64,000 nt of DNA from Candidatus Latescibacterota bacterium (GTDB lineage Bacteria > Latescibacterota > UBA2968 > GCA-2709665). The notes under the pieces were generated by a model. It saw only the letters and a program-made list of their open reading frames with translations. It did no database searches and was not told the origin of the DNA. This document shows, one piece after another, positions 31,739-63,818 of this stretch. Location: positions 2,304,001 through 2,368,000 of the forward strand of contig CBDCOX010000002.1 in NCBI GenBank assembly GCA_965219995.1, given 5' to 3'. Made by a program: the position numbers and the translations under genes. How positions within the stretch are numbered: the stretch's first letter is position 1; every line of letters starts with the position of its first letter.

Positions 31739-33331
31739 GTGACTTCGACAATTTCCAATCCTGTGTCCCGGTCCGGGCGTTCTGCCTCCGCGGGGATCGC
31801 ACTCTGCCTGCTGATGTCGACCGTCGCGTTCGCCGGGGCCGAACCCCGTAGCGGCACGCATCTCCTGCCCGTCCATCCCCATCCCGGCCCCGCGGCAAAA
31901 AGAACGGCCGCCGAGACGTTTGACGTCGGCGACCCTCTGACCGTTCGTGCTTACAATTTCGGCGCGATTCCGGGTTCCGATCCCTATTATCTCACCACAA
32001 CCACGTGCCGTGTGCGGGGCGAGCACTGCTACGTCTTCGTGGAAGACGTTATCTGGAGCGGACCGCGGGCCACGCCAAATGCCGTCGCATCCCTGGCCCG
32101 CGCCTTCGACCGGTCCACCCCAAGGCATCGCGAACGCGGCATCTATTCCATCAATACGGAAATCTTCGGGCCACCGCCCGACGCCGACGGCGACCCTCGT
32201 GTCCTGATCGTTGTCCTGGACATTATGGACAATGCCCTGAGCGGCACCATCCTGGGGTACTACGATACCGCGAACCAGGCCGCGCCGTTCGGCCGGGAAA
32301 TCCTCTATATCGACAGCGATCCCCTGGACCTCGACGGTAACCTGGCGCGCGCCACCCTTGCCCACGAATTCCAGCACATGCTTCACTGGAACGCCGACCC
32401 GGACGAACACCGATGGGTCGACGAGGGCTGTTCGGAATACGCCGAGCTGGCCTGCGGATACAAGGACACGACAGGCACGGCCGGTCATTTGTTCCTGGGC
32501 GCGCCGAACCTGCTCAAATCACCGGAATCCGCCCATCGTGTACCATTCGATGCCGGTTTGACGGATGCCGCCAGCTGGTCCGCCGGCAGCCTCCTTCCTT
32601 TCCTCTTCGACCAGACCTTTTTGCTGACCACCTACTTCGCAGAGAGATACGGCGATTCGGCCGTCGCGAAGCTGGTCGCCGAGCCGGAAAACGGCATTGC
32701 CGGGTTCGACCTTACCCTGGCGACCCTCGGAGAGGTCGAACGCTTCGATCAATTCTGGTCTCACTGGACCGCAGCCGTGTTCGTGAACGACGAGAGCGGT
32801 CCGGGTTACCGCGGCCTCGCGCTCGAGGCGGTCAGGAGCGATACGGTCGCAGTTCCCGCCGACGAACTCGGCGGCGCCCTGCAGCTCTGGGGCATCGACT
32901 ATTTCGTGCCTCGAACGTCAGGACTCTCCGGCCTGTCGCTGGACGTCGGCAGCGGCAGCGACCTGCTCCTGACACTGGTATCGGAAACGGACGACAGGCA
33001 CGACGTCGCCGCCGTCGCCGTGCCGGGCGGCAGTCAGCGACGCATCGGTTTGTACGGCAGTTCTCCAACCGTATTGGCCGTCACACGCACGTCCTCCGGC
33101 CCCCATACCTACACCCTCTCCCTCGCCTCGCGCGAAGGCCGCGCCCCCTCGGCGGCCGACTTCGACGCCAGCGGAACGGTCGGCTTTTCCGATTTCATCG
33201 CATTTGCCGCGGGCTTCGGTAAATCCGCGGGCAGACCGGGCTTCGACCCCTCGTTCGATCTGGACGGAGACCGCGCCGTCTCGTTCGGAGATTTCATCAT
33301 GTTCGCGCGGAACTTCGGCAAGTCACCATAA
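31739..33331 (+). CDS. Exported zinc metallopeptidase with C-terminal dockerin-like module
   Basis: AHEFQHMLHW...WVDEGCSE; C-terminal DFDASGTVGFSDF...DLDGDRAVSFGDF. Confidence 0.8.
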   Translation: MTSTISNPVSRSGRSASAGIALCLLMSTVAFAGAEPRSGTHLLPVHPHPGPAAKRTAAETFDVGDPLTVRAYNFGAIPGSDPYYLTTTTCRVRGEHCYVFVEDVIWSGPRATPNAVASLARAFDRSTPRHRERGIYSINTEIFGPPPDADGDPRVLIVVLDIMDNALSGTILGYYDTANQAAPFGREILYIDSDPLDLDGNLARATLAHEFQHMLHWNADPDEHRWVDEGCSEYAELACGYKDTTGTAGHLFLGAPNLLKSPESAHRVPFDAGLTDAASWSAGSLLPFLFDQTFLLTTYFAERYGDSAVAKLVAEPENGIAGFDLTLATLGEVERFDQFWSHWTAAVFVNDESGPGYRGLALEAVRSDTVAVPADELGGALQLWGIDYFVPRTSGLSGLSLDVGSGSDLLLTLVSETDDRHDVAAVAVPGGSQRRIGLYGSSPTVLAVTRTSSGPHTYTLSLASREGRAPSAADFDASGTVGFSDFIAFAAGFGKSAGRPGFDPSFDLDGDRAVSFGDFIMFARNFGKSP

Positions 33332-33388
33332 ATCATCCGGAGGGTCGTTTTCGGCCCGCCGAATGCCCCGTCCGGCGGAACCGTCTCG

Positions 33389-34123
33389 CTACTCCGCAAG
33401 GGCGGACCGACGCCAATAACCGGCAAAGTGTCGCTTCAACCAGTCGAACGGCGCCCGAAGCAACACGTTGTATCCGCCCCACGTCCAGCGCGTCACCAGT
33501 TTCAGACCGGTCACGGACGACAGCAAGGCCGCACGGGCCTCGTCAAGGCCTCCCGTCTCCCGGCCAAGCGTCAGCAATTCCCTCTCGTAGTTGAATCGAA
33601 CCATGTTCTGCGCATGCGCCGCCAGTTTTTCGGGAGCCTGCACACGGGTATGGGGGCAGACCGAGTGGCGTTCCGTAAACAGAAACGACGAGACCCACTG
33701 CGCGGACACCTCGCCGCGGGCGCCGCGCGCCGTTTCTTCCACCGCTTCGCGGCTCAATACCCCGTAGGTCCGGCAGACCAGCGGACGAACCGGGTAAATC
33801 GAACATCCCCCGTCGGCGGTCAGAAACGGGCAACGCACCGGCCGCTCCTCCGTCAATCCCAGAACAGCGTCGCGTTTTCCGGCATCGAACCGGTCCTGCA
33901 CATAGTCGACGATGTTCAGATACTCGACCGCATAGAGCGGATACATGGTCGCGAAATCCGCTTCCATTTCCTCCTTCGTGAGTTCGCAACACTGTCCCAA
34001 CCGGTCGCAGCGGCATGAAACGGCCGGCACCTGGTTGTATACCGCCTGGAGGCGGCGACGATCGGATTCGCTGAGCCGTCTCCGCTCACCCGATGGCGCG
34101 ATCTGTAACAGAGGTGTTTTCAA
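33389..34123 (-). CDS. YkgJ-family cysteine-cluster protein
   Basis: [10 protein letters not shown] and CPFL...[15 protein letters not shown]. Confidence 0.85.
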
Positions 34124-62500: not shown

Positions 62501-62827
62501 GCCGACGGACCCCTCCGGGACCGAAAGCCCGAATGCGCTGTTTTCGGCCTTTGCAAACGAAAGGAGGGAAGCATCGAAGTCGAATTTGATGATCATTCCT
62601 GCCAGGGACGTCCTCACGCCGGTCGCGAAAACCTCAACGGCAATGGTTGTGCCCCGGCCGGAAACTGTCCCCGACGTAACCCCGTCATCCGTCCGGTTTC
62701 CGGAGCCTCCACCGGGAATCAGGTCAAGCGACAACACGGCACTTGCATTGGGACCGGCGAAAGCCTGCCCTGCAAAGGCGACGACCGCGACCGCGGCAAT
62801 CAACAACAGAGTCCGTCTGGGAAGCAT
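59504..62827 (-). CDS. Cohesin-like + dockerin-like + 2 x (CARDB + LY propeller) + small C-terminal domain
   Basis: N-terminal region highly similar to 46634..49333; two YWTD propellers. Confidence 0.88.
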   Translation of the reverse strand: MLPRRTLLLIAAVAVVAFAGQAFAGPNASAVLSLDLIPGGGSGNRTDDGVTSGTVSGRGTTIAVEVFATGVRTSLAGMIIKFDFDASLLSFAKAENSAFGLSVPEGSVGVNLAATSPVTLASSGFLARAEFSTVADVTGREFSIGIESVTLAESPTSSDELSTGSEVTFNAAPSPDFDGDNHVGFADFLVFASVFGSRQGDGRYNAAQDLNTDGSVDFTDFLIFAQSFGGPPPSTGGGGGSPDLVVQSPSVSSARVAAGGPFALNATVRNQGNGSSAATTLRYYRSSDATVSTSDAQVGTDAVSGLPAGGSSAESINLTAPSGTGTYYYGACVNAVAGESNTGNNCSASVSLTVTTQTPPADGASKLYWTDWGTDKIQRSNLDGSGIEDLVTGAGLDGPDGLALDTAGGKMYWTDAGANKIQRANLDGSGVEDLVTGLGIPYGLALDVSSGKMYWTNRQTNKIQRADLSGANAEDLVTSGLTFPGGLALDVTGGKMYWTNPGANKIQRSNLNGSGVEDLVTSGVSSPTGIALDVSGGKMYWTDRRSDKIQRSNLNGSGVEDLVTSGLHSPNGLALDVSGGKMYWADAGTNKVQRANLDGSGIEDLVTGANGLVDPSGVAVGTPATGGGGPGTGGGSGAADLIVLTPSVSSSSLETGASFTLGVRVRNQGNGQSPATTLRYYQSSDGSISTSDTEIGTGAVGVLPASGGNPGTVDAALSIRLTAPSSAGTYHYGACVDAVAGESDTGNNCSAAVSITVSTATPPPTGTAKLYWTDWGTDKIQRGDLDGSNVEDLVSGAGLNGPDGLAFDVAGGKMYWTDAGTNKIQRANLDGSNVEDLITSGLSVPYGLALDVAGGKMYWTNRQTSKIQRADLDGANIEDLLTLSGLAFPGEIGLDVANGKMYWTNPGSDKIQRADLDGSNGEDLVTNGLSSPTGLALDLSGGKMYWTDRGTSSIQRAGLDGSNVEDLVTTGLNTPTGLDLDVDGGKMYWTDVDADKIQRADLDGSNVEDLVTSADGLVDPSGLAIGAVGGSSGGGTYGVGDALPNFPSGFFVPRRLSGASLTSSGGRTVLSFQNGGLIELQDGTRYTCISSGGCSIEDGRVTRGTFE

Positions 62828-63008
62828 CGGGGAACACTCCTTTGATTCGACGACGATTTTGTTCTGCTACTTTGTCCGAATGTGGAATGCGTCACTTGTA
62901 CTCGCAATGCCTCAAGGGACCCACCTTCAGGTATTCGGCCATCAGGCGCGAGTTTGTTTCCGATGGCTGTATTAGGGGTCGCGCGAGTGCGCCGAGACGA
63001 ACCGGCGC

Positions 63009-63818
63009 CTACTTCAAAAGGAGCATCCTCCTGGTGGCCGAGAAACTGCCGGCCTGGATCCGATACAGATAGATGCCGCTGGCCACGCGACGGCCAAGCG
63101 CGTCCGTCCCGTCCCACGTGGCCGAAAACAATCCGGCATCCCTCCGTTCGTTCACCAGTTCGCGTACCTCCTGGCCCAGCAGATTATAGATGGCCAGCCG
63201 CACCTGCCCCGCCTCGGGAAGCTGAAAGCCGATCGCCGTGGACGGGTTGAACGGATTCGGGATATTCTGGTTCAGCCTATATTGGTCCGGCAGCGGCTTT
63301 AGATGGCCGATTTCAACGCGAGAGAGCATATCCACGGCGCCATCCACGCCTACCAACACGCTCTCGGACACCCGAAAGTCCGATGCCGAAGGCGTACCGC
63401 TGATTTTGAAGGTGAGCTCAACGAGCCTGCCGTTGCCGGTGGCGCCCTGCCCATCGGTTCTCACCGCCCCGATATTCAACTCACCGGGCGTGCGGTTCGA
63501 GGTCAGGAACAACGTTTCCTGACCCGAATCCGACTTGAGCAGGTTGCCGTCCGGTTCCCTTGCTTCCAGGAACTCATAGGTGGCGTCGTCGTATTGCAGC
63601 GTCAGGCCGTATCCCTTCAGGTTACTGGCCTGAGACAGCGTGAGACGCAACGTCAGGGTCCCGTCTTCGCCGGCCGATTCGTTCACGCGCTCCAGCTTGA
63701 GCGCCGCCGATGCGTTCTGCCCCCCGGTAATGGTCAACCCGCGGGTCATGTCTCCAGCCACCGCCGCACCGGTCAACACCAACGCCGAACATACCGCTGA
63801 AATTAGACGGAAATACAT
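63009..63818 (-). CDS. Cohesin-like domain + T9SS/FlgD-type C-terminal sorting domain
   Basis: Signal peptide; LKGYGLTLQYD..TYEF...GRLVELTFK cohesin-like pattern; LNQNIPNPFNPST...IYNLLGQ...WDG...ASGIYLY...RRMLLLK CTD. Confidence 0.85.
   Translation of the reverse strand: MYFRLISAVCSALVLTGAAVAGDMTRGLTITGGQNASAALKLERVNESAGEDGTLTLRLTLSQASNLKGYGLTLQYDDATYEFLEAREPDGNLLKSDSGQETLFLTSNRTPGELNIGAVRTDGQGATGNGRLVELTFKISGTPSASDFRVSESVLVGVDGAVDMLSRVEIGHLKPLPDQYRLNQNIPNPFNPSTAIGFQLPEAGQVRLAIYNLLGQEVRELVNERRDAGLFSATWDGTDALGRRVASGIYLYRIQAGSFSATRRMLLLK

Follow-up and report, generated by a model that had tools for sequence, protein, structure and literature searches.

Cohesin–dockerin systems that resemble the one described here are known from clostridia, Cloacimonadota and archaea. 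In the clostridial cellulosome, represented by the Cel48 dockerin of Pseudobacteroides cellulosolvens (2y3n), the dockerin carries two Ca loops, each with its helix, and a long inter-repeat linker, and the cohesin is a β-sandwich. For 'Ca. Stygibacter' of the Cloacimonadota, the relevant passages of Williams et al. 2021 (PMC8542988) describe, in silico, a cellulosome-like complex in which one 3755-residue scaffoldin combines tandem cohesins with the carbohydrate-binding modules (CBMs) CBM2 and CBM3, is accompanied by a handful of dockerin enzymes, and is proposed to attach to the surface through a type IX secretion system (T9SS) C-terminal domain (CTD). Excerpts of Chadwick et al. 2022 (PMC9012536) describe large non-cellulolytic cohesin and dockerin sets in anaerobic methanotrophic (ANME) archaea, with a proposed role at the cell surface or between cells. 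We analyzed a 64-kb stretch of a Candidatus Latescibacterota genome (C2:2304001-2368000, hereafter the window; assembly of 5.44 Mb in two contigs, 98.6% complete) that encodes eight dockerin-bearing proteins and one small cohesin protein with a T9SS CTD. We find it fairly probable that the window belongs to a lineage-wide, non-cellulosomal cohesin–dockerin system of a diderm bacterium with a T9SS, in which cohesins would be anchored at the surface and dockerin-tagged proteins would plug into them in a Ca-dependent manner.

The Ca loops and helices, the long linker and the cohesin β-sandwich are shared with the clostridial cellulosome. In contrast, the host here is a diderm, the predicted anchor is a T9SS CTD rather than an S-layer homology (SLH) domain or a Gram-positive sortase signal, each protein has one cohesin, no CBM scaffoldin was seen in the profile and Pfam results, and the cargo consists mostly of repeat proteins and proteases. 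With 'Ca. Stygibacter', judged by the same passages, the system shares the T9SS CTD on a cohesin protein, dockerins on non-cellulolytic enzymes including peptidases, and an evidence base that is in silico only; instead of a single large scaffoldin, however, there are five single-cohesin CTD proteins of 269–360 residues, cohesin–dockerin (Coh-Doc) cassettes, 87 dockerins and eukaryote-like repeat cargo. The ANME sets, as far as the excerpts go, likewise include proteins with both cohesin and dockerin, but they belong to an archaeal envelope without outer membrane or T9SS, their cargo is often substrate-binding proteins, and they have up to 5 cohesins per protein. A CTD-anchored cohesin scaffold has thus already been inferred in Cloacimonadota, and the novelty here lies in anchors that pair one cohesin with a CTD, in Coh-Doc cassettes used as leaders, and in cargo of a eukaryote-like type.

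The original prediction, made from the letters of the window, had pointed to a twin Ca-loop module in eight exported proteins, which are named here by the first coordinate of their genes. A strict pattern of Ca loop plus helix, run over all six frames of the window, gave 12 matches, all of them within the eight named open reading frames (ORFs), and inspection revealed two Ca loops in all eight, with a slightly degenerate second copy in 31739, 45218, 49669 and 59504. The modules have the organization of dockerins, with a tandem pair of segments, each about 22 residues long, in which a 12-residue EF-hand-like loop (D1, D/N3, D/N5, G6, a hydrophobic residue at position 8, and D12) is followed by a helix, and 16 columns of their alignment, including loop Asp and helix Phe residues, are invariant. 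Five modules have the long-linker form (about 56 residues; 31739, 38369, 42537, 46634 and 59504) and three the short-linker form (about 50 residues; 45218, 49669 and 55024). Searched against the PDB, a profile built from all eight modules matched the cellulosomal dockerin 2y3n_B best (E 9e-11, 57/60 positions), with calmodulins at about 1e-5; because of this preference we assigned the modules as dockerins rather than generic EF-hands, and an origin as chance EF-hand matches was rejected. Pfam Dockerin_1 was marginal on whole proteins, where only 59504 passed (23.0, cut-off 22.9) and 46634 reached 16.8, and the NCBIfam model dockerin_GC placed the three short-linker proteins just below its cut-off. 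A six-frame Pfam search of the genome gave about 30 dockerin sites over the cut-off, some of them only jointly with neighboring in-frame matches. In an AlphaFold2 (AF2) model the dockerin of 59504 folds as two helices with a predicted local distance difference test (pLDDT) score of 85–93. By sequence and predicted two-helix fold, the twin Ca-loop modules are true dockerins, as had been proposed. None of the eight proteins has a T9SS CTD, in line with the prediction; TIGR04183, PF18962 and our own CTD profile agree on this point, and the TIGR04183/PF18962 matches in the window are confined to 63009-63818 and an M6-like protein at 23639-26758. The cohesin–CTD gene and the eight dockerin genes are as follows.

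63009..63818, minus strand: small anchor protein of 269 residues, with a signal peptide, a cohesin (residues 24-168 = 63315-63749), a linker and a type A T9SS CTD (residues 183-269 = 63012-63272)
59504..62827, minus strand: Coh-Doc cassette protein of 1107 residues, with a signal peptide, a predicted cohesin fold (residues 24-173 = 62309-62758) and a dockerin (residues 175-229 = 62141-62305)
55024..59490, minus strand: dockerin protein of 1488 residues, with a YWTD propeller, a weak cadherin-like match, LRR, and a C-terminal short-linker dockerin (residues 1437-1486 = 55033-55182)
49669..52152, minus strand: dockerin protein with a metzincin-type HEXXHXXGXXH motif, a WD40 propeller and a C-terminal short-linker dockerin (residues 778-826 = 49675-49821)
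46634..49369, minus strand: Coh-Doc cassette protein of 911 residues, with a cohesin-like domain (residues 36-184 = 48818-49264) and a dockerin (residues 187-242 = 48644-48811)
45218..46570, minus strand: dockerin protein of 450 residues, with a propeller-like region, Fn3, and a C-terminal short-linker dockerin (residues 401-450 = 45221-45370)
42537..45017, minus strand: dockerin protein of 826 residues, with a metzincin-like HELAH motif, WD40, and a C-terminal long-linker dockerin (residues 768-823 = 42549-42716)
38369..40891, minus strand: dockerin protein of 840 residues, with the metzincin motif HELGHTFGLEHD...IMSY, WD40, and a C-terminal long-linker dockerin (residues 784-839 = 38375-38542)
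31739..33331, plus strand: dockerin protein of 530 residues, with an HEFQH zinc-protease-like motif, no Pfam family, and a C-terminal long-linker dockerin (residues 473-528 = 33155-33322)

The N-termini of all eight dockerin ORFs look like signal peptides as judged by eye only; in 49669 this holds only from Met79, which is the likely true start. Downstream of the cassette, 59504 carries two CARDB domains and two YWTD/LDL-receptor-B propellers (Pfam Ldl_recept_b and CARDB), and 46634 carries CARDB, a YWTD propeller and a leishmanolysin-like HEMAH motif. Five of the proteins (31739, 38369, 42537, 46634 and 49669) contain an HEXXH zinc motif, which has the metzincin form HEXXHXXGXXH in three of them. 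The cargo list of the original prediction was largely borne out: WD40, Ldl_recept_b (YWTD), LRR, fn3 and CARDB were recovered by Pfam and the zinc proteases as HEXXH motifs, whereas the cadherin match stayed under the Pfam cut-off (26.5 against 28.8). The three proteins encoded at 38369-40891, 42537-45017 and 49669-52152 are paralogues in which an N-terminal domain of about 330 residues without a Pfam family precedes WD40 and then the dockerin. Their metzincin motif reads HELGHxFGLxHD ... [IM/IL]SY, and the Met of the Met-turn is Leu in 42537.

The 269-residue protein 63009, whose hydrophobic N-terminus was read by eye as a signal peptide, is the putative socket. Pfam Cohesin scored 26.5 on its residues 40-145 (cut-off 24.1) and 28.1 in the six-frame search, and TIGR04183 scored 32.9 (cut-off 23) on residues 187-266; Pfam FlgD_ig/Por_Secre_tail also matched the protein. 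A Foldseek search of the PDB with an AF2 model (pLDDT 71), for which 39 homologues were used, put cohesins on top, namely 2w1n, 3kcp, 6kgc, 5nrm, 2jh2 and the Archaeoglobus fulgidus cohesin 2xdh; against 2jh2 the TM score was 0.68, with a root-mean-square deviation of 2.9 over 137 columns. The protein belongs to a family of at least 321 homologues, nearly all of exactly 269 residues, and its named relatives are annotated as 'T9SS type A sorting domain-containing protein' (seven Gemmatimonadota and one Latescibacteria among the matches listed). On the evidence of sequence and model, 63009 is a cohesin fold followed by a type A T9SS CTD, and the cohesin-like domain suspected earlier withstood the fold search. 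A complex prediction with one pair only, the 63009 cohesin (residues 24-172) with two Ca and the 59504 dockerin (residues 168-236), gave scores of 0.24 and 0.14 against a mark of 0.32 and counts neither way.

A second kind of cohesin, overlooked in the original prediction, occupies the roughly 150 residues between the signal peptide and the dockerin in 59504 and 46634. The AF2 model of residues 1-245 of 59504 (pLDDT 77.7) shows a β-sandwich plus helices at 185-194 and 218-227, and the top PDB matches of its N-terminal domain in Foldseek are cohesins (2vo8 with a TM score of 0.64, 2jh2, 6kgc and 5aoz). Pfam Cohesin did not reach its cut-off on this domain of 59504 or 46634 in whole-protein or six-frame scans, and hhalign against the 63009 family was weak (E 0.015, probability 3%); we took the domain as a cohesin because the fold search returned cohesins, hhalign alone being too weak. 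The cassette of 46634 scores 165 bits with our own cassette profile and is 64% identical to that of 59504. The Coh-Doc cassette recurs at 60–88% identity in at least 562 proteins in which the downstream cargo varies (YWTD, LRR, CARDB and others). Adaptor scaffoldins, such as ScaC of Ruminococcus flavefaciens, likewise join a cohesin and a dockerin in one polypeptide, as do 12 ORFs of this genome, two of them in the window. Here, in contrast, the cassette forms a leader, about 215 residues long, at the N-terminus of a large and varied cargo protein. Since 59504 and 46634 each join one cohesin with one dockerin, they could bridge the anchor and further cargo.

To place the window in the whole genome, we searched 30,120 six-frame ORFs of at least 60 residues, a crude set without a gene call, with our own profiles. 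The dockerin profiles identified 87 ORFs, with the dockerin at the C-terminus in 52, near the N-terminus in 31 and internal in four; 59 have the long linker, 25 the short one, and three are partial. Twenty-two ORFs are cohesin-like (six with a domain like that of 63009, 16 with one like those of the cassettes), and 22 have a CTD by our own profile, with 23 sites for TIGR04183, 21 of them over the cut-off. A cohesin is joined to a partner domain in 18 of the 22 cohesin-like ORFs (seven with a CTD, the 12 mentioned above with a dockerin, and one counted in both), and the four ORFs with neither are only 66–206 residues long. The predicted cohesins thus come in two forms, those fused to a CTD, mostly as 269-residue one-cohesin proteins, and those fused to a dockerin in N-terminal Coh-Doc cassettes. 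Whether dockerin and CTD exclude each other across the genome was a check that the original prediction called for, and they nearly do, as a single dockerin ORF of the 87 also has a CTD. This ORF (C2:3130268-3135238, minus strand, 1656 residues) is the only one with all three domains, in the order dockerin (residues 1350-1401), cohesin (1426-1546; Pfam 38 bits) and CTD; this cohesin is also found in frames of 1500–1800 residues across the order, and the adjoining gene (C2:3128674-3130200) encodes a 508-residue protein with a cohesin-like domain and a CTD.

The cargo was surveyed by a Pfam scan of 85 of the 87 dockerin ORFs, excluding two fragments of 61 and 76 residues, with thresholds of 0.01, 1e-3, 1e-8 and 1e-10 across scans.

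WD40: 23 ORFs
LRR: 9 ORFs
FGE-sulfatase: 6 ORFs
YWTD: 5 ORFs
HEXXH proteins of the window, by motif only: 5 ORFs
Fn3-rich: 4 ORFs
Pfam peptidases (S8 twice, M10 and M60): 4 ORFs
Carbohydrate-active: 4 ORFs, one with a GH5 cellulase domain (C2:662947-664431) and three of heparinase II/III type (lyases)
Without a family at the thresholds used: about 19 ORFs

The predicted cargo would comprise about 87 Sec-exported, type-I-like dockerin proteins, mainly WD40, LRR and YWTD propeller proteins, Fn3/immunoglobulin-like (Ig) arrays, and metallo- and serine proteases. Two families stand in tandem arrays, one of six proteins of about 700 residues with WD40 and a C-terminal dockerin (C2:1776483-1790185) and one of five proteins of about 345 residues with an N-terminal dockerin and an FGE-sulfatase domain (C2:3563864-3569972). 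The GH5 cellulase and the three heparinase II/III-type lyases with dockerins are what one would cite for a true polysaccharide-degrading cellulosome of the clostridial style, a reading that we consider highly improbable. It is contradicted by the domain census: carbohydrate-active proteins make up only 4 of the 85 scanned, which by itself led us not to call the system a cellulosome, so that dockerins do not sit mainly on plant-cell-wall-degrading enzymes; no ORF of the genome has tandem full cohesins by our own profiles, the maximum being one; the cohesin proteins gave no Pfam hit to a CBM; and the Pfam scan of the window contains no glycoside hydrolase, as had been noted at the outset. From the label 'cellulosome-like' in the original prediction, the plug-and-socket principle is retained and the comparison to a multi-cohesin, carbohydrate-degrading assembly is dropped.

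Cohesin–CTD and dockerin genes are also linked on the chromosome. Four of the five small cohesin–CTD genes, each with one cohesin, have a dockerin ORF no more than 500 bp away, compared with 6% for random positions, and the neighbor is a cassette gene in each case. At a second paralogous locus (C2:4258569-4310023), an 88%-identical cohesin domain adjoins a cassette protein of 1105 residues. Contigs from sequencing runs cover the window, and its own arrangement was found again in a contig of 1216 bases from an independent run, X5 (61965-63180, 53 differences), which runs from the cassette gene across the spacer into the end of the cohesin–CTD gene; contig joints at 59.8–61.9 kb were ignored, as they lie within YWTD repeats. 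A promoter and terminator scan of 62600-64000 found none.

Beyond this genome, the 63009-type cohesin was found in all 41 relatives searched (two families, nine genera, 1–10 matches each). Among 121 genomes sampled from the phylum, the cohesin–CTD family is present in 43 of 43 genomes of the order, with a best E of 1e-47 or lower except in two fragmentary cases, whereas the best E in genomes from elsewhere in the phylum stays at 4e-24 or above, and most of the matches listed there lie in long proteins. The dockerin profile has at least 24–54 scored matches per genome of the order and at least one match in 105 of the 121 genomes; per genome, there are 1–34 in family f3, at least 51–53 in family f4 and 0–29 elsewhere. 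These genomes are kin, and the counts are not independent. In a set of 30 loci, taken one per genome and including our own, cohesin and CTD are joined throughout, and a cassette gene lies next door at 13 of the 30, all in the genus of the window. Synteny was examined in 20-kb stretches around the best cohesin–CTD match of 20 relatives. Within the window's genus a dockerin or cassette gene lies within 20 kb of the best cohesin–CTD match at 10 of 10 loci, and four of the 10 preserve a block consisting of a 533-residue ORF, a PorU-like gene (81–83% identical), two regulators, the cohesin–CTD gene and a cassette gene. A separate set of 79 contig loci from a relatives search with 63009 was not used for synteny; most are generic CTD proteins of metagenome-assembled genomes (MAGs) from the Fibrobacteres–Chlorobi–Bacteroidetes (FCB) group, because the search patterns came from the CTD, and few cover the cohesin. 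In MAGs of Rhodothermaceae, Melioribacter and Ignavibacteria, small proteins resemble 63009 over cohesin and CTD alike (30–36% identity), and the one-cohesin-plus-CTD architecture may therefore extend more widely in the FCB group.

These data bear on the possibility that the twin loops are autonomous Ca-binding modules, serving stabilization or binding a glycan or lipopolysaccharide ligand, with the cohesin-like CTD proteins being unrelated Ig-like surface proteins and the co-occurrence of the two reflecting shared regulation. Dockerins do outnumber cohesins by 87 to 22, seven of the 13 genomes of family f10 in the phylum sample have one dockerin match each and no cohesin match, and one cohesin–CTD paralogue has no dockerin neighbor. 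However, such independence would not account for a cohesin fused to a dockerin in more than half of the cohesin-like ORFs (12 of 22), for small cohesin–CTD genes abutting dockerin genes at the frequency given above, or for the coincidence of the small cohesin–CTD family with the dockerin expansion in every one of the 43 order genomes, related as they are; and the modules match a solved cohesin-binding dockerin much better than EF-hands. We regard this explanation as quite improbable.

The export side was searched for in the same genome. Type A cargo of the T9SS, such as the gingipains of Porphyromonas gingivalis, is attached by the sortase PorU after transport through PorV and SprA. SprA was found over its cut-off (628 bits summed), and three further genes of this context lie in or just beyond the window.

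22528..23574, plus strand: PorV/PorQ-family outer-membrane protein (NF033709 226 bits, cut-off 90), the best of nine PorV-model matches in the genome
23639..26758, plus strand: relative of the T9SS-dependent M6-like (inactivated) metalloprotease, with its own CTD (NF052323 335 bits, cut-off 600; TIGR04183 22.4)
C2:2371132-2376900 (L005:3132-8900), minus strand: PorU-like protein of 1922 residues that also has a type A CTD; the genome has no other long PorU match

The CTD of the M6-like protein is just under the TIGR04183 cut-off on the protein (22.4 against 23) and above it in the six-frame search. The PorU-like gene lies beyond the window end, 3.3 kb upstream of the cohesin gene and in the same orientation. 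Two AraC-type response regulators (L005:760-1569 and L005:1627-2325) are encoded in the interval, and the 533-residue ORF, without an assigned family, lies farther upstream. The original prediction had made 63009 the first gene of its co-oriented run; its composition of signal peptide, cohesin and CTD stands, but the regulators and the PorU-like gene precede it. The type A features of 63009, a signal peptide and TIGR04183, and the SprA, PorV-family and PorU-like proteins agree with the basics of the T9SS given in the consulted portions of a review (PMC9251779). Unlike gingipain-type cargo, the passenger here is a cohesin alone, the PorU-like protein is below the model cut-offs, and the lineage lies outside Bacteroidota. 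The type B CTD model TIGR04131 gave no match and its control was silent as well, so that this search is uninformative. Elsewhere, at C2:3969792-3972581, a PorV-like match precedes two ORFs in which both ends of the GldK model are matched (96 bits, under the cut-off); this may be a second cluster related to the T9SS.

We propose the following route. PorV would carry the cohesin–CTD protein to the SprA translocon, and the PorU-like sortase encoded 3.3 kb upstream would remove the CTD and fix the cohesin on the cell surface. Dockerin-tagged cargo would then plug into the anchored cohesin in a Ca-dependent manner, and the cassette proteins would act as adaptors that each add a further socket, so that host-interaction modules and proteases would form a branched coat with exchangeable parts. 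Folds and domain rule agree with the gene linkage, the conservation and the near-exclusion between dockerin and CTD, and we therefore favor a T9SS-exported cohesin–dockerin system in which the sockets are exported, and probably anchored, by the T9SS. Of the plug-and-socket proposal in the original prediction, the identities of dockerin, cohesin and CTD, the T9SS parts, the near-exclusion and a linkage above chance are in place; from these we infer the functional part, that is, cohesin–dockerin binding and its specificity, the surface anchoring of the cohesin and a role toward a sponge host.

How cargo without a CTD would cross the outer membrane is a separate question. Secretin PF00263 had no match in the genome (its control rang in 6 of 14 genomes), and GspD was not found either, with a control that rang. 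As no secretin was found, our best guess is that the cargo crosses bound to the cohesin–CTD protein. In its strong form, the 269-residue cohesin–CTD proteins would be detachable T9SS adaptors that bind dockerin cargo in the periplasm and pass through SprA with it, the dockerin being a trans-acting secretion tag; we hold this to be unlikely. It would fit the 86 of 87 dockerin ORFs that have no CTD, the lack of secretin and GspD matches in a 98.6%-complete genome, the cohesin-like domain in seven of about 22 CTD proteins, the minimal design of the adaptor (socket plus signal, with strictly conserved length), and the transit of folded proteins through the T9SS described in the cited portions of the review (PMC9251779). 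On the other hand, T9SS co-transport of a non-covalent partner appears neither in those portions nor in our literature search, cargo of 450–2000 residues held by a small interface may not fit the translocon, the type I and type V secretion systems, vesicles and lysis would be alternative routes, and the idea presupposes cohesin–dockerin binding. A wider version, in which a few cohesin–CTD carriers would export and then hold about 87 cargo proteins on the surface while cassettes extend the lattice, is a similarly doubtful proposal. If true, a trans-acting tag would explain how sponge symbionts without classical secretion systems present repeat proteins and proteases to the host.

Several observations weigh against the anchored, T9SS-exported cohesin–dockerin system that we prefer. 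With a single cohesin in each protein and some 22 cohesins to 87 dockerins, large defined complexes are not implied. The predicted binding rests on sequence, fold and context, and the confidence of the 63009 model is moderate. No dockerin gene lies within 58 kb of the paralogue C2:1100122, and beyond the genus a dockerin or cassette gene within 20 kb is rare (one of four loci in other genera, one of six in the sister family), which makes synteny mainly a genus-level feature. On the export side, the PorU-like protein misses the cut-offs of both NCBIfam models (300 where 420 is needed, and 221 where 450 is), the GldK model has partial matches only, GldM was not found by a search whose control was also silent, and any route of the cargo without a CTD across the outer membrane is putative. 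The dockerin genes do not form one operon, as enolase, a TPR protein and Nramp are encoded between 31739 and 38369 and set 31739 apart from the main cluster. The co-oriented block of the original prediction survives as a same-strand run but not as one block: besides these housekeeping genes, an aldo-keto reductase gene (41097-42140) and a group of small ORFs intervene in the stretch of dockerin genes.

Near-identical sequence was found in 'sponge metagenome' runs from two studies (X5, share 0.57; X6, share 0.52), and also in X7 (0.47) and the 'marine metagenome' run X8 (0.45); the best-matching runs X1-X4 were excluded as a possible source, and no RNA run was among the matches listed. Named public relatives are mostly labelled Gemmatimonadota (16, against two Latescibacteria, among the matches listed). 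The original prediction had stated that cohesins and dockerins have been noted in Latescibacterota genomes, and the backing for this is indirect only: the terms cohesin, dockerin and cellulosom* are absent from Youssef 2015 (PMC4454575), and an excerpt of a PAUC34f paper, citing Farag 2017, mentions 'cellulosome-affiliated enzymes' in Latescibacteria. Our literature search found no paper combining dockerin, cohesin and Gemmatimonadota, no dockerin or cohesin paper on sponge symbionts, and none that brings dockerins to sponge eukaryotic-like proteins. The relevant parts of Robbins 2021 (PMC8163846) report that sponge symbionts are rich in eukaryote-like repeats and that few lineages encode secretion systems for their delivery; in the supplementary table, Dockerin_1 stands at 0.02 per sponge MAG and is not enriched, and Cohesin at 0.33 per sponge MAG compared with 0.09 in seawater MAGs. 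Because Dockerin_1 is low and not enriched in that table, the dockerin complement described here appears to have gone unnoticed so far. Dockerin tags on repeat proteins and proteases, together with a T9SS signal on cohesins, offer a concrete and testable route to surface display, which suggests how host-interaction proteins could come to cover the surface of sponge-associated symbionts and raises the question of whether the T9SS co-exports non-covalent partners. One-cohesin anchors and the conserved 215-residue Coh-Doc leader would also be compact surface-display parts for Gram-negative hosts.

Two other groups of genes lie among those discussed. The M6-like gene is followed at 26670-29885 by a gene for a TolB-like propeller protein of 1071 residues with neither dockerin nor CTD. 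The small ORFs between the dockerin genes 49669 and 55024 (52145-54954, minus strand) number four and are 157–219 residues long; their sole family match is weak and BamE-like, and the local GC content is 0.55, compared with about 0.60–0.62 around them.

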